Source: a virus
UHGV virus genome: UHGV-0146801
Reading direction: 5' to 3' (one strand)
Length of the DNA stretch: 39,348 nucleotides
Positions within the stretch are counted from its first letter, which is position 1. The number at the start of each line of letters is the position of its first letter. The position numbers were made by a program, and so were the translations under genes. This document shows, piece by piece, positions 1,830-15,672 of the stretch. The notes under the pieces are model-generated. The model was not told the origin of the DNA and made no database searches. It saw only the letters and a list, made by a program, of their open reading frames with translations.

Positions 1830-3347
1830 TTAATCAAATGATGTGGCCAGTTCAATTAATTCAATGTAATTATGTAAGGCATAAAAAGATGTATTCAGTC
1901 CATTCTCTATAAGGGCTCCTTGCAAATACTTTATAGCTGTATCACCATCAATAGGGCCTTGTTGAGATTTAATCATTAGTGAATTTTGCCCATTGTTTTT
2001 TATACTTGATTTAAGTATTTTTATATTATTGATAAAATACAATGCAACATCTAAGTAATTTATTAATGTTAAACTTATTTTGGGCTCGATCTGTGAGATG
2101 AATAATCTACTGTTCGCCGTTGTATAGATATAATTGACACCTATTCTTTGCTGATTTGTATCAAGATTTAATTCAAGGATGGCTTGAGAAACACCTTTTA
2201 AATTGGAGCTTTGCTTTATCGAATCAGTGAAACGTTGTGCTGCATTTCTTCGACCAATTAGTCCATCTATAATTTGACGATCCTTATCATATATAATCAT
2301 TAGCGAAATTATAAAAATATAATCTACTTTCTTTTTGACTAAATCAGATTTAAGAATGTCTATTAACCTTTCAGTATTTCGGATTGAGTCTCTTAGATTT
2401 AACCCAAATGCTTCAAATACGTTGGAAATATTTATTGAAAAGTCTTCTAATGTTGCGGTTAGTGGGTATGTTTTTGATGTGATATTTTCAAACTCGGTAC
2501 CAATATAATCACCAACAACACCATTAATTAAATCTTTAAGTTCAGGTTGTTTTAAAGTAAATCTTCTATGAAAAAAACGGCCTAAATAGTCATTTGCGGA
2601 AAAATCATTACCGTAAACATTCTTGATTGAATGTTGTAATTGATCTGTGTCAGTAGCAATAATAAAGACAAAATTTTTAATATCGAATATATGTTTAACA
2701 ATCTCTAAAAGAGAAATTGCATAATCTGGCCTGCATCTGTCTAATTCATCTATAAAGATAAATATAGGACATGAAAAACTATTTTCATATGCCAACCTAG
2801 ACCATAACGTAAGTTCTTTTTTTAATACCTTAATGCTCTTCAGTTTTTCCTGGTGTTCCTTCAGCATTATTAATGAGGCTTCTTTGGCTATATCACCTAC
2901 GTTATCTACTCCTGCATAAGTCTTGATTAGGCCAGATATGATTTCAGGTAGAACACCTTTTGTAAAGCGTCCGATAGCATGGCCGCTTTGTATCAATCGA
3001 GCATCAAGTTTTCCTGCATATGTTTGCAATTGTTGTGACAAAGAAGAAAAAAGGGTTAAAAATGCATCATCAGAAAAGTCTTGCTTCCAGGCATCAATGT
3101 AAACGCATGGGTGTGCATCTTTTATTGAGTTATAAAATCTCTTTATGAAAAAACTTTTACCAGCTCCCCATTCTGCATTAAGGTTGATTACCGTGTTGTT
3201 CTTTTGCCCCTTTTCCTTAAGATAAAAATATAGATATTCTGCATAGTGTCTCCGATTAAGTTTGTCTTTGGAGAGAATTTCCTCTTCGTCGTCTAATATA
3301 AAGGTAGTTTCTTCATCCCAGTTCCAATTACAATCACCACATTTCAC
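1830..3347 (-). CDS. KAP-family P-loop NTPase (cargo, candidate defence gene)
   Basis: 505 aa; Walker A with KAP-type tryptophan NAEWGAGKSFF and Walker B IFIFIDELDRCRP (DELDRC motif); AT-rich coding sequence. Confidence 0.8.
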   Translation of the reverse strand: MKCGDCNWNWDEETTFILDDEEEILSKDKLNRRHYAEYLYFYLKEKGQKNNTVINLNAEWGAGKSFFIKRFYNSIKDAHPCVYIDAWKQDFSDDAFLTLFSSLSQQLQTYAGKLDARLIQSGHAIGRFTKGVLPEIISGLIKTYAGVDNVGDIAKEASLIMLKEHQEKLKSIKVLKKELTLWSRLAYENSFSCPIFIFIDELDRCRPDYAISLLEIVKHIFDIKNFVFIIATDTDQLQHSIKNVYGNDFSANDYLGRFFHRRFTLKQPELKDLINGVVGDYIGTEFENITSKTYPLTATLEDFSINISNVFEAFGLNLRDSIRNTERLIDILKSDLVKKKVDYIFIISLMIIYDKDRQIIDGLIGRRNAAQRFTDSIKQSSNLKGVSQAILELNLDTNQQRIGVNYIYTTANSRLFISQIEPKISLTLINYLDVALYFINNIKILKSSIKNNGQNSLMIKSQQGPIDGDTAIKYLQGALIENGLNTSFYALHNYIELIELATSFD

Positions 3348-3372
3348 TATGAAGTCTCCATGAAAAATTTAC

Positions 3373-4296
3373 TTAATGTAAACAACTTATAATAACTTTT
3401 GCAATAAACTCAATGTCTGTAAGCGAACATTCAAAAGAGTGATTTTTGGATGAAATATAAACTCGTCCTTTAGGTAGTCGAGTTATCATTCTAAATGAAT
3501 TCTCTCCATCAATATTTACTAGCCACTTACCATCATGTACATCTTTAAAACCCATTTCACATATTAATTCAGAGTCTTCGGTAGATACTACGAATGCATT
3601 TTTTAAATTGGAAGGTAGAAAACATGGGTCAAATAAATATGAGCCATCATTTATTAACTTGCCATTGATTAATACTTTTTTCACTAATGTTAAAGTATCT
3701 TTATTTTTTGCGTTTTTCATTTCTCCTGTACCAAATGAAATCCATTCAATAGAATGGCCCGTTTCTATTGCACACTGCAAAACCCAGTCTGCAGGAAAAA
3801 TGTCACGCATGTATCGTGTGGCTAATGTGCTTTTTGAAATACCTAGGTGATCAGCTAATGCTTGGCGCGTTTTGTAACCGTAAGCCTCGACAATTCGTTC
3901 TATTGTTGCCTTACCCCCTCGGTTAAAATTCATGAGTTTTTCATTATCGAACTTTATAGTGGGAATGTATACTTCATTGCAAAGGCCATTAACGGCATGT
4001 TTTTCAGAATATTGCTCTGATGAAGGAGCAGTATCTGAACCAAGAACTAACCATTCAATTGATGCTCCTGTTTCTATGGAACATATAACAACCCAATCTG
4101 CAGGAAAGGTATTACGTGCATATCTGTTGGCCATAGTACTTTGGGAAATACCTAGATGATTACATAATGCCTGTCGTGACTTGAAGCCATAGGCTAGGAG
4201 TATACGCTCAATAACTTTTTGCCCTCCACGATTCTGCATGACTATTGCTTTCAGATCGTTTTTGATATGGCTAAATTTTAATTTTTGAGTTGACAT
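3373..4296 (-). CDS. CI-repressor paralog with two tandem N-terminal HTH domains and a CI-like C-terminal domain
   Basis: 307 aa; two copies of the I(E)R(I/M)(L/V)xAYG(F/Y)K(S/T)RQAL..HLGISxST(M/L)A.RY.R..FPADWV block, and a C-terminus that aligns with the adjacent CI (LPKGRV vs LPGGRI, FLPSNLKNAFVV vs FLPSTLKNPFVI). Confidence 0.75.
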   Translation of the reverse strand: MSTQKLKFSHIKNDLKAIVMQNRGGQKVIERILLAYGFKSRQALCNHLGISQSTMANRYARNTFPADWVVICSIETGASIEWLVLGSDTAPSSEQYSEKHAVNGLCNEVYIPTIKFDNEKLMNFNRGGKATIERIVEAYGYKTRQALADHLGISKSTLATRYMRDIFPADWVLQCAIETGHSIEWISFGTGEMKNAKNKDTLTLVKKVLINGKLINDGSYLFDPCFLPSNLKNAFVVSTEDSELICEMGFKDVHDGKWLVNIDGENSFRMITRLPKGRVYISSKNHSFECSLTDIEFIAKVIISCLH

Positions 4297-4346: not shown

Positions 4347-4922
4347 TTACTCAAAGTACTTAACTGTTATGGTTATAATTTTTCCAATAATTTCGATTTC
4401 TTCTTTTTTACATTCGAAAGCCCTATTTCCACCTTCAACTAAGATTCTTCCACCAGGTAAACGAGTGATATCGCGGATTGTTACTTCGGCATCAATACTT
4501 ATTACCCATTTGCCGTCACGAATATCGTTAAACTCTTTATCGCAAATAAAAACGGAATTGTTATCGGTGATTACAAACGGATTTTTGAGCGTAGATGGTA
4601 GAAATTCTTTATCGAAAATATAAAAACCATCTTCCTGCAAGGTTCCATCAGATAATACATATTTAACGACTTCCATAGTATTTGTATTACCTGAAGTTTG
4701 CTTTGAACCATGTCCGGTCGTGAGCCAGTTAAGCGAGGCGCCCGTTTCAAGTGCGCACTGGATTACCCATTCAGCAGGGAATGAGTCACGCATATAGCGT
4801 GTGGCGAGAGTACTTTTAGAGATTCCTAAGTGATCGCACAACGCCTGTCGAGTCTTGAAGCCATATGCTTCTACCATGCGCTCTATAGCGCCTCGTCCGC
4901 CTTTCTCCAAATTCATGGTCAC
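4347..4922 (-). CDS. cI: Immunity repressor CI, phage 186 type
   Basis: 191 aa; N-terminal HTH (AYGFKTRQALCDHLGISKSTLATRY) and C-terminal oligomerisation-like domain; divergent from apl/cII as in 186. Confidence 0.85.
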   Translation of the reverse strand: MTMNLEKGGRGAIERMVEAYGFKTRQALCDHLGISKSTLATRYMRDSFPAEWVIQCALETGASLNWLTTGHGSKQTSGNTNTMEVVKYVLSDGTLQEDGFYIFDKEFLPSTLKNPFVITDNNSVFICDKEFNDIRDGKWVISIDAEVTIRDITRLPGGRILVEGGNRAFECKKEEIEIIGKIITITVKYFE

Positions 4923-7395: not shown

Positions 7396-8249
7396 GCACC
7401 ATCCTGAAATGGGCGGGTAATAAAACTGCCATTATGTCCGAACTGAAAAAACATCTTCCTGCTGGCCCGCGACTGGTTGAACCTTTCGCGGGTTCCTGTG
7501 CTGTGATGATGGAGACGGATTACCCCAGCTATCTTGTTGCGGATATTAATCCTGATTTAATCAACCTCTATAAAAAGGTTGCTGCTGATTGCGAGGCGTT
7601 TATATCTCGTGCCAGAGCTTTATTTGAGGAAGCAAACAGGGAGGTGGCTTATTACAACATAAGGCAGGAGTTTAATTACTCCACTGAAATTACTGATTTC
7701 ATGAAAGCGGTATATTTCCTGTATCTCAATCGTCATGGTTACCGTGGGTTATGTCGTTATAACAAGAGCGGGCATTTCAACATTCCATACGGTAATTATA
7801 AAAATCCGTATTTCCCTGAAAAAGAAGTTCGCGCATTTGCAGAGAAAGCCCAGCGAGCAACGTTTATCTGCGCCAGCTTTGATGAAACGCTGGCGATGCT
7901 GCAGGTGGGGGATGTGGTGTATTGCGATCCGCCTTATGACGGTACGTTTTCCGGCTATCACACTGACGGCTTCACTGAAGATGACCAGTATCACCTGGCA
8001 TCTGTTCTTGAATATCGATCATCAGAAGGTCATCCAGTCATTGTTTCTAACAGTGACACATCCCTGATCCGTTCGCTGTATCGAAATTTCACTCACCACT
8101 ACATCAAGGCAAAACGCAGCATCGGCGTGTCGGCTGGCGAGAGTAAATCTGCAACAGAAATCATTGCTGTTTCCGGGGCGCGCTGCTGGGTGGGATTTGA
8201 TCCTTCGTGTGGCGTGGATAGTTCTGCTGTGTACGAGGTGCGTGTATGA
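7392..8249 (+). CDS. dam: DNA adenine methyltransferase (Dam-like, no cognate nuclease nearby)
   Basis: N-terminal KWAGNK and FAGSCAV (SAM-binding) and catalytic DPPY motif ([10 protein letters not shown]); ATG 7392 after GGAGG. Confidence 0.85.
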
Positions 8250-10660
8250 GTCATGACGATATGAGCAACTCTAGCGGCTTTAACGAGGCCGCTGCAGCAT
8301 TTTCATGGAACGGCCCGAAAAAGGCCATTAACCCTTATCTGGACCCGGCGGAAGTTGCTCCGGAGTCTGCACTTTTAAACCTGATCACTCTGTACGCTGC
8401 CGATAATGAGCAGGAACAGCTGCGCCGCGATGCACTGAGTGAGCAGGTCTGGGAGCGTTATTTCTTTAATGAATCTCGTGATCCTGTCCAGCGCGAAATG
8501 GAGCAGGATAAGCTCATTAGCCGGGCAAAGCTGGCGCATGAGCAGCAGCGTTTTAATCCAGATATGGTCATTCTGGCGGACGTCAATGCCCAGCCTTCCC
8601 ATATCAGCAAGCCGCTGATGCAACGTATTGAATACTTCAGCAGCCAGGGCAGGCCAAAGGCTTATTCCCGCTATTTGCGTGAGACGATTAAGCCATGTCT
8701 GGAACGACTGGAGCATGTACGCGACTGTCAGCTATCCACTTCTTTTCGCTTTATGGCAAGCCATGAAGGGCTGGACGGCCTGCTGATCCTGCCTGAAATG
8801 AGTCAGGATCAGGTGAAGCGTCTGTCTACCCTTGTCGCTGCGCATATGAGCATGTGCCTTGATGCAGCTTGTGGTGATTTGTATGCCACCGATGACGTTA
8901 AGCCAGAAGAAATCCGCAAGACGTGGGAAAAGGTGGCAGCGGAAACCCTGCGTCTGGATGTTATCCCGCCTGCGTTTGAGCAACTCCGTCGGAAAAGAAA
9001 CCGCCGTAAACCCGTGCCCTATGAACTCATTCCGGGTTCGCTGGCGCGTATGTTGTGCGCCGACTGGTGGTATCGGAAATTATGGAAGATGCGTTGCGAA
9101 TGGCGGGAAGAGCAGTTGCGCGCTGTCTGCCTGGTCAGCAAAAAAGCATCTCCCTATGTCAGCTATGAAGCCGTGATGCATAAACGTGAGCAGCGCCGTA
9201 AGTCGCTGGAGTTTTTTCGTTCTCATGAACTGGTGAACGAAGACGGCGACACGCTGGATATGGAAGACGTGGTAAACGCCAGCAGCAGCAACCCTGCGCA
9301 TCGCCGCAATGAGATGATGGCCTGTGTTAAAGGTCTGGAGCTTATCGCGGAAATGCGCGGAGACTGCGCCGTTTTCTACACTATCACCTGTCCGTCACGT
9401 TTCCATTCCACGCTCAACAACGGCAGACCCAACCCGACCTGGACAAATGCGACGGTAAGACAAAGCAGCGATTATATGGTCGGCATGTTTGCTGCATTTC
9501 GTAAGGCAATGCACAAAACCGGGTTGCGCTGGTATGGCGTGCGGGTGGCTGAGCCGCACCATGACGGTACTGTGCACTGGCATCTCATGTGCTTCATGCG
9601 TAAAAAAGACCGCCGCGCCATCACTGCATTACTGCGTAAGTTTGCCATCCGTGTAGACCGCGAGGAGCTGGGCAACAACACGGGGCCACGCTTTAAGTCT
9701 GAGCTGATTAACCCGCGCAAAGGAACACCGACAAGCTACATCGCGAAATACATCAGTAAGAACATTGACGGGCGTGGTCTGGCTGGCGAGATCAGCAAGG
9801 AAACGGGTAAATCCCTGCGTGATAACGCCGAATACGTTAATGCCTGGGCGTCTCTGCATCGTGTTCAGCAATTCCGCTTCTTTGGTATTCCGGGGCGTCA
9901 GGCTTACCGTGAACTGCGATTGCTGGCTGGTCAGGCGGCAAGGCAGCAGGGGGACAAAAAAGCAGGTGCGCCGGTACTGGATAACCCACGCCTTGATGCC
10001 ATTCTGGCTGCTGCTGATGCTGGTTGTTTTGCCACCTACATCATGAAGCAGGGCGGCGTACTGGTTCCCCGCAAATATCACCTCATCAGAACCGCTTATG
10101 AAATCAACGAAGAGCCGACCGCCTATGGCGATCACGGCATTCGTATTTATGGCATCTGGTCACCCATTGCAGAGGGCAAGATCTGTACTCATGCAGTGAA
10201 ATGGAAAATGGTTCGTAAGGCCGTTGACGTTCAGGAGGCGGCAGCCGACCAGGGCGCTTGCGCCCCTTGGACTCGTGGCAATAACTGTCCCCTTGCTGAA
10301 AATTTGAACCAACAAGGGAAAGACAAATCAGCTGATGGGGACTCCAGAACGGATATTACCCGTATGAATGACAAGGAGTTGCACGATTACCTGCATAGTA
10401 TGAGCAAAAAAGAGCGCCGGGAACTGGCTGCAAGGTTACGCCAGGTGAAACCGAAACGGCGTAAAGACTACAAACAGCGAATTACAGACCATCAGCGACA
10501 GCAGCTCGTCTATGAACTGAAGTCCAGGGGATTTGATGGCAGCGAGAAAGAAGTCGATTTGCTCCTTCGCGGCGGCAGTATTCCGTCAGGAGCAGGCCTG
10601 CGTATCTTCTATCGGAACCAGCGTCTGAAGGAAGATGATAAGTGGCGGAACCTGTATTAA
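8246..10660 (+). CDS. A: Replication initiation endonuclease, P2 gpA-like
   Basis: 804 aa; HxH-type motif VHWHLMCF and tyrosine-rich [14 protein letters not shown] typical of rolling-circle initiators; position as in P2/186. Confidence 0.85.
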
Positions 10661-10754
10661 TTACGCGGGTTAACAATTCGTGCTCTTAATAATACCAGGC
10701 ATATCAGGCCGATGAACGTAAAAAAACGTTTTACATCAGTAAGATTATTATATA

Positions 10755-10770
10755 CTGTAAATATAAACAG
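10755..10770. promoter_or_regulatory. LexA box (SOS box) CTGTAAATATAAACAG
   Basis: Perfect CTGT-N8-ACAG with AT-rich core, about 45 bp upstream of the ORF starting at 10813. Confidence 0.7.
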
Positions 10771-10812
10771 TGGTTATGTGTACAGTATTGTTTTGGTGTC
10801 ATAGGAGGAAAG

Positions 10813-11001
10813 ATGCAGGACTATTTTTTGGAGTCTTTGAAGCTCCAGCGCATTGATTTTTTTCTTAAGCTTGTAGCGGCTAGTGAGTGTAGTGATGAAG
10901 AGAAGGGGCTGGCTCTGCAGTGGGTTTCTGAATTGACTGATGAACTCATGGCAAAAATCAGAAGCCACGAATACAACCGCTCAATGGATGTCATCAGCTG
11001 A
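10813..11001 (+). CDS. Small SOS-regulated protein, function unknown
   Basis: 62 aa ORF with AGGAGG RBS directly downstream of the LexA box. Confidence 0.5.
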   Translation: MQDYFLESLKLQRIDFFLKLVAASECSDEEKGLALQWVSELTDELMAKIRSHEYNRSMDVIS

Positions 11002-11011
11002 GGTGACTTTT

Positions 11012-11245
11012 ATGCGCATTGAAATAATGATCGATAAAGAGCAGAAGATTAGCCAGTCTACCCTGGACGCCCTTGAATCCGAGCTTTACCGCAATCTGCG
11101 CCCCCTGTATCCCAAAACGGTAATTCGCATTCGCAAAGGTAGCTCTAACGGTGTGGAACTAACCGGACTGCAACTGGATGAAGAAAGAAAACAAGTGATG
11201 AAAATTATGCAGAAGGTGTGGGAGGACGACAGCTGGCTGCATTAA
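11012..11245 (+). CDS. DinI-family protein (Tum-like antirepressor candidate)
   Basis: 77 aa, MRIEIMIDKEQKISQSTLDALESELYRNL resembles DinI/MsgA; position and LexA control parallel the phage 186 tum module. Confidence 0.7.
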   Translation: MRIEIMIDKEQKISQSTLDALESELYRNLRPLYPKTVIRIRKGSSNGVELTGLQLDEERKQVMKIMQKVWEDDSWLH

Positions 11246-11437
11246 GAAATGTTGCCCCCAGGAGGATTCATTCTGATGGGGGCTAGTTTGGGCAATGAGT
11301 GAAATAAGGCGTAAGGTGGGCGGTTATTTTGATCAGTGATCGTCCGCTTTGTGTCAGAAGCAGAAGTGGGAGTGTCTGAGACTCTCTAAAAGTTGATGAT
11401 TCACTTACAAAACCATTTTCCTGATGGATGCTTACAC

Positions 11438-11773
11438 TTACGAATGATCATTCTGTTTAGTCTTCATGAGAAAATCCCGAATCTTTGCCAAGTTTGAATT
11501 TTCGGGGATTGAATCCATGTACGGATCACGCTCAAACACTAATTGCTCAGATTCAACGAAAGCCTGCCACTCTACTGGGTCTAGCTCAAATCCCATTGCT
11601 GTCATATCACTTTCATCTTCCCCCTCGATCCAGTGGACTAAATAAAACAATTCATCATCAGGAGAATCATCCTCACCATCAACAATATCAACATCGGTTA
11701 CAGTGATACGTAGGGTGGGATCGATTTTTGAGACATAAATTCCTAACTGTGGTATAGGGGGAATATTGTTCAT
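11438..11773 (-). CDS. Small, highly acidic protein (candidate DNA mimic or anti-defence)
   Basis: 111 aa with about 25% Asp+Glu and few basic residues; runs of DGEDDSPDDE and EGEDESD. Confidence 0.6.
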   Translation of the reverse strand: MNNIPPIPQLGIYVSKIDPTLRITVTDVDIVDGEDDSPDDELFYLVHWIEGEDESDMTAMGFELDPVEWQAFVESEQLVFERDPYMDSIPENSNLAKIRDFLMKTKQNDHS

Positions 11774-12291
11774 GGAAACTCCTTTTATTGGTGTTTGCTA
11801 TTTGAATAAAAATACGCCAAACAGAGTGTTAACTGTGAATATGGAAAGAATCGTTGTAAGTACCCCGCTTAGGTGTCCCATTCTATTTTAGAGGTTCTCG
11901 TGCATATGGATTATGTTATCTGAAAGTTAACTTCCGCTTCCCGTTCACAGCGAACATTCATCTTTGTAAACCCGTATGATCCGTTTTTCAAGTGGCCATT
12001 CAGATACGGATTTTTACTTCTTTGACAGTGCATGACTATGCTGCATGAAATCGCATGATCGATTGAGGATCGTCTTTGCTCAGATCCGCCAGAACTGGCG
12101 GGCTTTTGCTCATGTCATGCATGTGCATGAAAACCACTGCATAAAGCGGGCAGGCGTGGCGGGGATACGAGCGCGCGCGGATACATAATTAATAATATAA
12201 CATAAAATGTTAAGTTGCTTTTGCGTTAGCACTGGATTACATTACCGAAATAGTCAAAAATGCGTTTTTTACGCAAAAATGAGGACTTCAG

Positions 12292-13521
12292 ATGCTAGTT
12301 GCATTCAGTTTAGAAAATTACAAGAGCTTTCGCGAAAGACAGGTTCTTAGTTTTGCTTCCTCAATTGGGGATGAGCATCCTGAACATATCGTGACATTAG
12401 CGAATGGTTTAAGAGTAAACAGATTTGCCGCATTAATAGGCGGAAATGGTGTTGGTAAAACACAATTAATAAATGCTATTACTGAATTTGCAAATTCAAT
12501 TCATAGTGACACATTACACAAATTGCATATGCCTTTCCTTCTAAATAAGGAATGTCGTAACAAACCTACTTCCTATGAAGCGATACTGATTGATGAAGAG
12601 CAAAAAAACTTCGTCCGTTATGGTGTGTCAGTTTTAAATGAAGTTATTGTAGATGAGTATTTATACATTAGACCGATAAGAAAAAATGCAAGGGAACAAT
12701 GTATTTTTATTCGCAATGAAAATGGGTTGGTTTTCAAAAAGCCCGACTTAAAAAAATACGAGTCGTTGATTAATCCTGTCTTAAGAGAAAGTGGAGCTGT
12801 TGTAACTTTTGCAAAATCTTTAGAAATTGATGCTCTTGTTGAAACCCAACGCTGGGCATTAAAACAATTGCCTTATTACTCTGAAAAATTCAAAAATCCA
12901 AGTCTTAAATTTGTTGAAGGACAACTTAAGCGCCAGTTATCAGGTGAGGAAGGAAATGAAAAATTAAATGAGAGTGGTCAAAGAATTTTAAATACCTATA
13001 ATGAAATGGTTATTCAGTCGCCGCTGCATATAGATAAAGTTGAATTTGTAAGATTTGGCGAAGATAATGAGTATAAATTTGTTTATCTCATAAAAAATGA
13101 TGATGGTGATTTTACTAGAATAGGCCCTGACCGTAGGGATGAATTTTTTTCCCAAGGCACACTAAATGTTTTAACATTTTTAGCAATATTGATTTGGGCT
13201 AGTGAATATGATTTTACACTTTATGTGGATGAAATAGATTCATCTATTCACTATTCTTTGGCAAGTGCACTAATCAAAAAAATATTTGATAAAACCTGCC
13301 GTAAAAATGGTGTGCAGTTTATTATGTCTACACATAATATTCCTTTATTAGATGATGTGTTTAGAAGAGATGAGCTTAATATTATAGTCAAGGATTCATC
13401 TAAAGCGTCGATAATAACTAATGCTACGGTATTTTCTGTAAGGAAAGATGCTAAAGTGTCTGCCAAATATTTACGTGGCGAATTTGGATTAGTTCCAGCT
13501 TTTCTTGATATAAAAAACTAA
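12292..13521 (+). CDS. ABC/OLD-type P-loop ATPase (AAA_15/21-like)
   Basis: 409 aa; Walker A GGNGVGKT, signature-like FSQGT, Walker B/D-loop LYVDEIDSSIH, H-loop MSTHN; AT-rich. Confidence 0.8.
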   Translation: MLVAFSLENYKSFRERQVLSFASSIGDEHPEHIVTLANGLRVNRFAALIGGNGVGKTQLINAITEFANSIHSDTLHKLHMPFLLNKECRNKPTSYEAILIDEEQKNFVRYGVSVLNEVIVDEYLYIRPIRKNAREQCIFIRNENGLVFKKPDLKKYESLINPVLRESGAVVTFAKSLEIDALVETQRWALKQLPYYSEKFKNPSLKFVEGQLKRQLSGEEGNEKLNESGQRILNTYNEMVIQSPLHIDKVEFVRFGEDNEYKFVYLIKNDDGDFTRIGPDRRDEFFSQGTLNVLTFLAILIWASEYDFTLYVDEIDSSIHYSLASALIKKIFDKTCRKNGVQFIMSTHNIPLLDDVFRRDELNIIVKDSSKASIITNATVFSVRKDAKVSAKYLRGEFGLVPAFLDIKN

Positions 13522-13534
13522 GCGTGAGAAAAAC

Positions 13535-14614
13535 ATGACTAGCTTTGCTTATGATGGTGATATTTTGACACCTAATAATTTAGAAATTACATCCTTCGCC
13601 ACATTGAAATCAAAAATAAGAGAGCGAAGAGTATGTGTTTTTCTCGGAGCAGGATTTTCTAAAGCCTGGGATGACAAATACCCATTGAGTAATGAAGTCT
13701 TTTCCATCTCTGAAGACGAAGCATTAGAAAATATTGATGAGTATGGTTTTTTTTCTTTGTTCGACAGTCTTAAATTTAAATGGGCGGATGCTAATGCAGG
13801 TTTAGATGACAAAGCTAATGTTTTCAAGAGTTTTAAATATGCATTGGATGTTTATAAGCGATATCCAAGTTTATTGCCGTCGTATCTTGATAGGCATACG
13901 CTTGAGTTGTTTGAGGCACAAGTAAAACTATATGTAAAAAATAAGTTTGCAAAAAAAATACCGGCAAATGATTTAAAGCTAAGTCAAACTGCAAAATTTG
14001 GGCAGAATAAAAGGAATATTATTTCTTTCTTTAAGAGTTTACAGGAAGCTTCAGCACTGGATGTAGTCACAACAAACTACGATATAGTTATTGATAAAGT
14101 GCTACATCATGCATTCCCTGAACGTTCAGTTAATCGGGGTTTTCCTGTGCATCATAATAATATATTAGTGTGTCCTCAGCCTAAAGGTATAGGTTTGTAT
14201 AAGCTTAATGGAGGATTTGAGGTTGTTGCTGCAAGGGATGGTTTTAAAATAGATTATGATTCATTATTAAACGCAAAAGTTGTTCCAAATATTATCTTGC
14301 CTTCAAATGAACAAGACTATGGGGATAAATACTTTAAGTCAGCTTTTGTGAAATCCTCTACCCAGTTGAGACAAGCAGATCTGTTGATCTTTATAGGTTA
14401 TTCTTTCCCAAAGGAAGACTTTATTATTAATTTTCTTTTGAAGACTTTTCTGGATGGCGATAGTACTGAAAAAGAGACTGTTATTATTGGGCGAAATAAA
14501 TCTAGTGCTATTGAGATACACCAGCGTGCGTGTGAAGTTTTTAAAGAACTAAATGATAAATCTGCACTGTATTATTTCGGTGGTAGTTTTTCTGATTTAT
14601 GTAAACAATGTTAG
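13535..14614 (+). CDS. SIR2-like (DHS-like NAD-binding fold) protein, candidate NADase effector
   Basis: 359 aa; Rossmann motif VCVFLGAGFS, TTNYD motif (VVTTNYDIVID), C-terminal LLIFIGYSFPKED; 13 bp downstream of the ATPase. Confidence 0.75.
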   Translation: MTSFAYDGDILTPNNLEITSFATLKSKIRERRVCVFLGAGFSKAWDDKYPLSNEVFSISEDEALENIDEYGFFSLFDSLKFKWADANAGLDDKANVFKSFKYALDVYKRYPSLLPSYLDRHTLELFEAQVKLYVKNKFAKKIPANDLKLSQTAKFGQNKRNIISFFKSLQEASALDVVTTNYDIVIDKVLHHAFPERSVNRGFPVHHNNILVCPQPKGIGLYKLNGGFEVVAARDGFKIDYDSLLNAKVVPNIILPSNEQDYGDKYFKSAFVKSSTQLRQADLLIFIGYSFPKEDFIINFLLKTFLDGDSTEKETVIIGRNKSSAIEIHQRACEVFKELNDKSALYYFGGSFSDLCKQC

Positions 14615-14619
14615 TATAC

Positions 14620-14645
14620 TAGGCCTGATTACAGGCCTATTTTCT
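14620..14645. terminator. Hairpin TAGGCCTG-atta-CAGGCCTA followed by TTTTCT between convergent SIR2-like and Q genes
   Basis: Perfect 8-bp stem with 4-nt loop and T-run on the + strand. Confidence 0.55.
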
Positions 14646-15672
14646 ATAATTTATATTTTTCGAAGTTTATGATGTCGTCACCAATAAATCCGTTGAATCC
14701 TTGTATAATTCTTTGAAGCGGAATTAACTCATTACGTACAAATACATTTGCGGCCTTCTCCACATCCCCAAATCCCCCGACATTATTCGGCATAATCCCC
14801 ATCATCTGAGGCGGCACGCGGTGCGCAGCCATCATGTCATCACGGCTCACGTTCTTGATATTCAGAAATTCATCCTTCGCCGCGACTTCTGACAACGGGA
14901 TAATCTGAAGTCCGTCCTTTTTGCCGTTCGGCGAGTACATAAACAGGTTGCGGAAGTTGCCCGGACCTTTGGCGCTTTTCATCGCGTTGCGGAGGTTGTT
15001 CACATCTTCCTGGTTCTGCGCGGCGTCGGTCATGTACATGATGAAGCCAGCATGACTGCCGTTAATGTAATACTTGCGGCGGAACAGCGTGGCGGACTCG
15101 TTGAGCAGGGCTGACGGAATGGCAGAAAGATAACCGGGCAGGCCGTAGATCTCTTGGTTGATGTCCGGTTCCATCAGATGAAAAATGCTGCCTTTCGTGA
15201 ACTGATACGGCTGGGTTGTCATACCGTATTGCACAAACCAGTAGGTATCTAGGTCTAACCCGCGTCGGGTGTATTTCGCCAGGGCAGGTTCAAGGGCGAT
15301 CACTTCACCGAAGCGGTTCGTGCGTTTCTCCAGGTAGGCGTTACCAAATACCAGATAGTCCTGCACAAAACGCGAAAAAGCCTGCTGGCTGAGCAGCGGG
15401 TGAGGGATGTAGGTGCTGGTCAGAATGTTGCACTTTACTGCAATCGGGGAACTATGATGCACGGCAGCGCGGAAGGTGCGCGCCAGTCCGTCAAAGCTGA
15501 CGGGCGGCTCATACCAGCGGTCCATCTGTACGCATTCCACATAATCCAGCAGTTCTCGGCGGTCCAGAACAGGAACGGGATCGCCGAAGCTGAATGCTTC
15601 GGCTGTAGTTTGACTTTTAAGCTGGATCTGTTTCGTCGCCGCAGCGCGGTTCTTCTTACTCTTTCCCATCAA
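14644..15672 (-). CDS. Q: Portal protein, P2 gpQ-like
   Basis: 342 aa; position and size match P2 Q; divergent from O across a late promoter region. Confidence 0.9.
   Translation of the reverse strand: MMGKSKKNRAAATKQIQLKSQTTAEAFSFGDPVPVLDRRELLDYVECVQMDRWYEPPVSFDGLARTFRAAVHHSSPIAVKCNILTSTYIPHPLLSQQAFSRFVQDYLVFGNAYLEKRTNRFGEVIALEPALAKYTRRGLDLDTYWFVQYGMTTQPYQFTKGSIFHLMEPDINQEIYGLPGYLSAIPSALLNESATLFRRKYYINGSHAGFIMYMTDAAQNQEDVNNLRNAMKSAKGPGNFRNLFMYSPNGKKDGLQIIPLSEVAAKDEFLNIKNVSRDDMMAAHRVPPQMMGIMPNNVGGFGDVEKAANVFVRNELIPLQRIIQGFNGFIGDDIINFEKYKL

Follow-up and report, generated by a model that had tools for sequence, protein, structure and literature searches.

A family of small acidic proteins, DUF8087, on a portable cassette in conflict hotspots of mobile elements, with a possible role as a decoy

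The stretch of DNA analysed here (39,348 nucleotides, virus genome UHGV-0146801; hereafter the window) is a P2/186-like prophage. On its reverse strand, in the region bracketed by gpA (8246-10660) and the portal gene (14644-15672), lies a gene for a small and highly acidic protein (11438..11773; 111 aa plus stop, ATG start). This protein is a typical member of DUF8087 (PF26332/phrog_17127), a small family without an assigned function, and its gene is an accessory gene (a 'moron') that stands alone, moves horizontally and resides in conflict hotspots of several types of mobile element, independent of any one neighbour. The acidity is a conserved trait of the family and no quirk of the window copy, and the fold is predicted to be an SH3/Tudor-like β-barrel followed by a C-terminal helix. 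The function that we tentatively prefer is that of an acidic decoy which possibly serves the carrying element, i.e. counter-defence in the broad sense.

A conserved family of acidic proteins

The open reading frame (ORF) at 11438..11773 had 61 homologues at E ≤ 0.01, and pairwise dN/dS ratios of 0.07-0.43, mostly ~0.2, were those of purifying selection. On these two grounds it was taken as a genuine, selected gene and not a chance ORF. A Shine-Dalgarno sequence, AAGGAG (11779..11784, reverse strand), stands 5 nt before the ATG, and a purine-rich motif of the AAAGGA/AAGGG type was kept at this position in nine homologous cassettes. The GC content of the gene and of the cassette that carries it was 40%, compared to 50% for the window.

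The first-pass annotation had singled out a 111-aa reverse-strand protein, roughly a quarter Asp and Glu and with few basic residues, and had proposed that its pI and net charge be calculated. This description was borne out by the sequence. Acidic residues made up 26/111 positions (15 Asp and 11 Glu, 23.4%) as against 7 Lys plus Arg and 2 His, and both peptides that had been quoted were found (DIVDGEDDSPDDE, residues 29-41; IEGEDESDMTAMGFELD, residues 49-65). The computed pI was 4.05 and the computed net charge at pH 7 was -19.3. The acidity is concentrated in residues 23-81, which contain 20 Asp/Glu and no Lys or Arg. When the non-overlapping ORFs of the window with a length of ≥60 aa were compared (49 in all), this one ranked as the most acidic (z = 3.3).

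The protein matched phrog_17127 (PHROG 17127, 'unknown function') at E = 2e-70 over its full length (1-111/111). PF26332 was the precomputed annotation of all homologues, including the cluster (P0001) that is 98% identical to the window protein, and RefSeq names the product 'DUF8087 domain-containing protein' at the corresponding locus of strain E9, which was 99.6% identical over a 1041-nt query. When 1.84 billion representative proteins were searched with a profile, 34 matches (44-127 aa) were returned, every one of them small and acidic; 31 of the 34 were new, and the domain annotations of these 31 were not looked up. The matches had the pattern P..G.YVS...P..R..V.DV..(acidic loop)..F(Y/F)LV...E..D..DM.A...ELDP.EW..FV....L in common. 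Amongst forty distant homologues (30-57% identity) the median Asp plus Glu content was 22% and the pI ranged from 4.05 to 4.6, excepting one fragment of 44 aa; members as divergent as 30-45% identity were acidic without exception.

Searches against other known families were negative. There was no match to Pfam-A at E ≤ 0.1 (the models searched excluded PF26332) or to NCBIfam, none to the defence-protein models of PADLOC-DB 2.0 (0 families at E ≤ 0.1), and none between the family profile and the sequences in the PDB at E ≤ 10. DUF8087, PF26332, PHROG 17127 and the WP accessions were mentioned in the main text of no paper found. One accession, WP_001059831, appears as 'hypothetical' in the hotspot arrangements listed by Rousset et al. 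2022 (Table S5A).

A predicted SH3/Tudor-like barrel with acidic loops

An AlphaFold2 model obtained with a deeper alignment reached a predicted local distance difference test (pLDDT) value of 83.4 and a predicted template modelling (pTM) score of 0.70; the five models were consistent, each having a pLDDT of at least 80. In the model, five strands (residues 11-15, 22-32, 42-50, 61-64 and 78-82) form the barrel, one helix (66-76) lies between strands 4 and 5, and a second (94-109) occupies the C-terminus. Two acidic loops join strands 2 and 3 (33-41) and strands 3 and 4 (51-60), the former being variable in length and modelled with lower confidence. Conservation was seen in the β3-β4 loop (EGEDESDM) and in the motif ELDPxEW, with W69 invariant, and in the model this region, i.e. 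loop, motif and Trp, is likely to provide a candidate acid-rimmed binding site. Neither a catalytic domain nor a membrane feature was detected in the sequence, by which measure the protein is non-enzymatic.

A small protein of this predicted fold and charge has a precedent. CarS1 has an SH3 topology and a pI of 4.1 and mimics operator DNA by means of a hydrophobic pocket with an acidic rim (PMC2926617). The pI of DNA-mimic proteins ranges from ~3.8 to 5.5 (PMC2926617), and DUF8087, with a pI of 4.05 and a charge of -19, falls within the acidity expected of such mimics. Like CarS/CarS1 of Myxococcus xanthus, DUF8087 is small, acidic (CarS: 16 Asp/Glu versus 4 Lys/Arg in 86 aa), and non-enzymatic, and its modelled five-strand barrel may be of the SH3-like type to which CarS belongs. 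CarS is the best precedent and, by analogy, the closest counterpart of DUF8087 in predicted fold and charge. However, CarS is a regulator that is encoded on the chromosome, is induced by light and has a partner of its own (CarA/CarH), whereas DUF8087 is encoded on a mobile cassette without a conserved partner; unlike CarS, its model also has an inserted helix between β4 and β5 and an amphipathic helix at the C-terminus. No sequence relation between the two was found by Pfam or PDB sequence search, and DUF8087 may therefore be said to 'work like' CarS but not to be 'a member of' its family. Other small SH3-like barrels, namely DUF1653 (PDB 3be3), FeoA and the CarD/Tudor type, gave weak scores at 3-13% identity and showed no sequence-level kinship. 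DUF1653 was matched by none of 45 DUF8087 family members at E ≤ 1, and we know of no conserved acidity in the DUF1653, FeoA, CarD or Tudor-type folds.

The gene travels in a portable cassette

Where the window resembled loci of other genera, homology did not reach beyond the ORF, ~165 nt upstream of it and 36 nt downstream. This portable cassette of 535 bp (11402..11936, reverse strand) was 85-88% identical to unrelated loci in Morganella, Providencia, Raoultella, Serratia, Symbiopectobacterium, Lonsdalea and Proteus, as well as in a second E. coli context (an island). In the conserved 3' tail (11402..11437, reverse strand) the homology of the window to other genera comes to its end, whilst elsewhere it runs for a further 60-130 nt. 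Among the other loci the shared block extends from about -160/-240 to +420/+470 or beyond, and the flanks are otherwise mostly unrelated. A sharp-ended cassette of 535-650 bp was thus found in at least eight genera, at 85-92% identity, and in at least five kinds of element; flanking repeats or transposon-like ends were not found.

The conserved 5' part (11774..11936, reverse strand; ~165 nt) is presumed to be the promoter/regulatory region of the gene. In comparisons with the window its p-distance was 0.14-0.17 whilst the pS of the ORF was 0.23-0.32, i.e. it diverges at about half the synonymous rate and is moderately constrained. No consensus sigma-70 promoter was found in a scan upstream of the gene, and no LexA box near it, such that SOS control of DUF8087 is unsupported. 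A structured RNA or riboswitch in this region was considered and rejected (fold z = -0.38, 0 compensatory pairs, no Rfam match).

The cassette was present in 214/5426 complete E. coli genomes (~4%), including REL606, BL21(DE3), ATCC 11303, W and E2348/69. Two variants were apparent, one at ≥95% identity (~137 genomes) and one at 80-90% (82 genomes). The three copies of the first kind that were inspected were P2-like prophages, and the single inspected copy at 87% identity (strain WB61) adjoins a helicase gene and an insertion sequence (IS) element. Amongst deposited phage genomes the cassette occurred in 0/50,697 and amongst plasmid records in 1/72,556. Nearly all known copies of the gene come from integrated elements or from prophage-derived contigs in IMG/VR.

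A stable resident beside a hypervariable slot

The interval between gpA and gpQ is a published defence hotspot of P2 (PMC9122126; PMC13586616). Within it, the acidic gene had been placed between an SOS-controlled DinI-like module and an ATPase-SIR2 cassette, and this location was confirmed: the DinI-like gene (11012-11245, forward strand) lies on one side, and the ATPase (12292-13521) and SIR2 (13535-14614) genes, both on the forward strand, lie on the other. In sister prophages with the same DinI, homology stops at 11354, restarts over 11929-12178 and breaks again at 12178. Since homology breaks, resumes and breaks again, the hotspot has two cargo slots, and the three positions 11354, 11929 and 12178 may mark recombination breakpoints for cargo exchange. 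Slot 1 (11355..11928, no strand assigned) holds the DUF8087 cassette in the window and, elsewhere in P2-like prophages, DarT-DarG, a HsdR-N-domain protein or two hypothetical genes. It is split from slot 2 by a conserved non-coding spacer of ~250 bp (11929-12178), in which usually nothing is annotated and which contains a terminator-like hairpin (12085-12102, forward strand). The spacer, or its 3' 150 bp, was found in ~1300/5426 complete E. coli genomes.

The proximity of DUF8087 to the ATPase-SIR2 cassette had suggested a tie between the two, and a regulatory or structural part of DUF8087 in that system would agree with the divergent orientation of its gene, 520 bp from the ATPase gene, and with a Providencia homologue that lies upstream of another AAA_15/AAA_21 ATPase pair. 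The turnover of slot 2 speaks against such a part. In a set of 32 P2-like loci, made up of the window, four reference loci from E. coli and 27 contigs from IMG/VR, slot 2 was occupied in no fewer than 21 different ways, and in one locus it held no cargo. The identical DUF8087 protein (WP_001059831) was accompanied by ATPase-SIR2 in the window and strain E9, by retron Ec86 in BL21, by GmrSD in strain W, by a DprA-like gene in E2348/69 and by retron Ec67 in a further case, and the conserved spacer of 250 bp with its terminator-like hairpin separates the slots. With at least 21 cargoes beside the same protein a dedicated link is excluded; functional pairing with ATPase-SIR2 is essentially refuted, and we regard membership of that system as very improbable. 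Within its own P2 sub-lineage, DUF8087 is rather a stable resident (96-100% identity) beside a hypervariable slot. With the other accessory cargo of the gpA-gpQ interval (the old/tin locus) it shares this location, a presence that varies among related prophages and an exchange with other elements; it differs from that cargo in being encoded on the opposite strand.

Other carriers of DUF8087

In three divergent lineages of P2-like phages (E. coli, Klebsiella and Buttiauxella) the gene was found within the lysogeny operon, in the order repressor, Flk_N-like protein, DUF8087, integrase. In the Providencia prophage it follows ogr near the prophage end (ogr-att), upstream of the ATPase pair. Outside P2-like prophages, it lies beside a helicase-PLD protein and close to KlcA-type antirestriction genes in CP4-57-like islands and adjoins Lamassu in a P4-integrase island; integrative and conjugative elements (ICEs) and other phage-like contigs were further carriers. 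Defence hotspots have been reported at the gpA-gpQ, int-primase and int-att regions (PMC13586616), and the three P2 positions of DUF8087 (gpA-gpQ, repressor-int and ogr-att) lie in or beside them.

Two genes recurred next to DUF8087. The Flk_N-like protein (210-247 aa; L020 7344-7976, L009 7343-7990, L008 9227-9970) is anchored in the membrane by its C-terminal tail and may be a superinfection-exclusion protein. An obligate pairing of the two was rejected, as the Flk_N-like gene has no homologue in the window and occurs without DUF8087 in phage 520873, where another small gene, whose product has an apparent signal peptide, comes after it. In some islands and some P2 hotspots, the cassette is immediately followed downstream by an ORF for a protein of 127 aa with an N-terminal transmembrane segment (L003 4417-4800, reverse strand; L006/L007 10538-10921; L064 7538-7921). 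This ORF was missing from most cassettes and a constant pairing was likewise rejected. GNAT acetyltransferases also recurred near the cassette (L031, L064).

These neighbourhoods bear on whether DUF8087 might be an orphan immunity protein or antitoxin that counters a basic, nuclease-type toxin, such as a bacteriocin, an effector of contact-dependent inhibition (CDI) or of a type VI secretion system (T6SS), or an abortive-infection toxin. Typical nuclease immunity proteins are small and acidic, and Imm42, a PLD toxin with a Sel1 immunity gene, or Hcp occurred near some loci. However, no conserved toxin gene adjoined DUF8087 in more than 25 different contexts, its recurrent partners (the Flk_N-like and 127-aa proteins) were separable from it, and a family made up of orphans only would be unusual for immunity genes, so that we give this role little credence.

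In a group of distant homologues, from beta-proteobacteria and metagenomes (L027 8001-8306, L039 7797-8081, L040 4248-4553), the protein has a basic N-terminal extension (MGQAKLRGSKEERIAQ...). In small integrative elements, their genes are transcribed away from the HTH_17-GPA early operon, at a position where one would expect an immunity regulator. Element L039 also carries Gabija, a BglII-type restriction-modification (R-M) system and a SMEK_N protein.

A divergent position of this kind, seen in beta-proteobacterial GPA-HTH_17-integrase elements, speaks for DUF8087 as a modulator of a DNA-binding regulator of the host or the element. It might be a CarS-like antirepressor, for example, or might tune the expression or induction of the element by antagonising H-NS, HU or RecA. 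The acidity and the fold, if SH3-like as modelled, match CarS, the gene adjoins the LexA-controlled Tum/DinI-like module of the window, and the cassette is AT-rich relative to its surroundings. Nevertheless, it occurs among unrelated regulators, i.e. in ICEs, CP4-57-like islands and P2-like phages with different repressors, which means that any regulator targeted by DUF8087 would have to be a host protein, and no sequence kinship to CarS, DinI or PsiB was found. We therefore consider a role in regulation improbable.

Counter-defence and exclusion

As an acidic decoy, DUF8087 would act stoichiometrically by binding and covering the basic nucleic-acid-binding surface of one target protein, in the manner of DNA-mimic inhibitors. 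In the role that we slightly favour, the blocked protein would be one that targets nucleic acids and belongs to the host or to a rival, and the carrying element would benefit. The gene would be expressed from a promoter of its own, or as part of the repressor-integrase operon in the case of other P2-like phages. Counter-defence is favoured by the acidic composition and by an ArdA-like spread over phages, ICEs and islands.

The first-pass annotation had proposed a DNA mimic or anti-defence factor resembling Ocr and ArdA, and this proposal survives in part. The acidity conserved across the family, the absence of a detected catalytic domain and the residence in conflict hotspots agree with the general idea, whilst the likeness to Ocr and ArdA does not hold. 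DUF8087 does share with Ocr (T7 gp0.3) and ArdA an extreme negative charge, a stand-alone gene and a mobile-element origin; its size is similar to that of Ocr, and ArdA-type genes are likewise spread over plasmids, ICEs and prophages. Ocr, however, forms an all-helical dimer that mimics bent B-DNA, and ArdA is elongated and has three domains, whereas DUF8087 is a predicted β-barrel with no Pfam or Foldseek match to either. Membership of these families was ruled out by the sequence (no Pfam match at E ≤ 0.1), the predicted barrel fold and the lack of a structural match.

Several observations weigh against counter-defence as the function of DUF8087. Kinship to characterised inhibitors was not detectable, the best Foldseek match in the PDB having E = 0.28, and the best match among viral models (7e-3) was to uncharacterised proteins. 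The cassette is carried by the E. coli B strains REL606, ATCC 11303 and BL21. E. coli B is a classical EcoBI-restricting and RecBCD-proficient host, and since it restricts in spite of carrying the cassette, a constitutively active inhibition of type I enzymes, as by Ocr, or of RecBCD, as by Gam, is unlikely. Placement in the repressor-integrase (lysogenic) operon fits an exclusion function expressed in lysogens at least equally well, and the occurrence of DarTG in slot 1 of sister prophages suits exclusion too. Finally, recognised anti-defence genes were reported in only 28/1511 P2-like prophages (PMC13586616), and guilt by association is weak between separate transcription units (10.1101/2024.10.15.618418).

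Much of this evidence could be turned towards prophage or island exclusion, in which the lysogen would make a decoy that protects both the host and the resident element by trapping a DNA-binding protein from a superinfecting phage or satellite. From the repressor-integrase operon, in which it sits in three divergent P2-like lineages, DUF8087 would be expressed in lysogens. The slots it occupies hold proven or recognised defence systems, DarTG in slot 1 included (hotspots: PMC13586616, PMC9122126), it moves among P2, islands and ICEs in the manner of defence modules (PMC13586616), and the scarcity of anti-defence genes in P2 quoted above points the same way. E. coli B, W and E2348/69 have retained the cassette in cryptic prophages, which suggests a benefit to the host. 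On the other hand, DUF8087 matched no PADLOC model. To our knowledge, single small acidic proteins with neither an enzymatic nor a membrane domain are rare among characterised defences, which also counts against exclusion, and we hold exclusion to be rather unlikely. We are similarly doubtful of a broader proposition, namely that DUF8087 constitutes a new and structurally unrelated kind of DNA-mimic decoy, with an SH3-like barrel as its scaffold and a 0.5-kb cassette as its vehicle among prophages, ICEs and islands, which would work either in counter-defence or as an enzyme-free, single-gene immunity trapping a phage DNA-binding protein.

DUF8087 had been catalogued as a domain of unknown function (DUF) and the gpA-gpQ hotspot of P2 is well known; what is new is the family-wide acidity, the SH3-like model, the bounds of the cassette and its spread over eight genera and several element types, and the two-slot structure. 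If the proposed function is true, DUF8087 would add a new family to the known class of acidic decoys and DNA-mimic inhibitors. As a decoy it would represent an uncharacterised inhibitor family in ~4% of complete E. coli genomes, B-lineage laboratory strains included; in BL21(DE3), REL606, E. coli W and E2348/69 it would also modify how phages and plasmids behave, an effect so far unrecognised. It adjoins systems that are actively studied and engineered, such as retron Ec86/Eco1, GmrSD and DprA-PRTase. A stable resident beside a changing neighbour, in a hotspot with at least two sharp-edged slots, also bears on predictions made through guilt by association. The cassette offers natural boundaries of 535 bp, and natural isogenic contexts with and without DUF8087 exist. 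Should there be no conflict phenotype, DUF8087 would be an ordinary prophage moron.

Further features of the window

The DinI-like gene follows an ORF of 62 aa (phrog_698), and the sole LexA box of the window (TACTGTAAATATAAACAGTG, 10753-10772) lies upstream of both. The layout of this segment (10753-11245, forward strand) recalls the SOS-controlled Tum antirepressor operon of phage 186. The orf62-DinI operon converges on the DUF8087 gene over a shared hairpin (~11253-11282), and with this arrangement SOS read-through could be antisense to DUF8087.

In slot 2, the ATPase gene matched models for AAA_21/AAA_15 and, in PADLOC, AbiLi (2e-51), and the SIR2 protein (SIR2_2) gave only weak matches to the Aga_SIR2/SIR2 models. 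No PADLOC or NCBIfam model that names the two as a system was found, and 12292-14614 may combine an AbiL-type ATPase and a SIR2 effector in a pair that has yet to be named.

A second set of accessory genes was observed between the 186-type CI repressor (4347-4922) and the integrase (691-1743), where two extra genes occupy 1830-4296 on the reverse strand. One encodes a 307-aa protein with two CI-repressor helix-turn-helix (HTH) domains, and the other a 505-aa KAP-family P-loop NTPase that matches the PADLOC candidate PDC-S20 (E = 7e-78). Together they look like a second defence cargo, here in the lysogenic operon.

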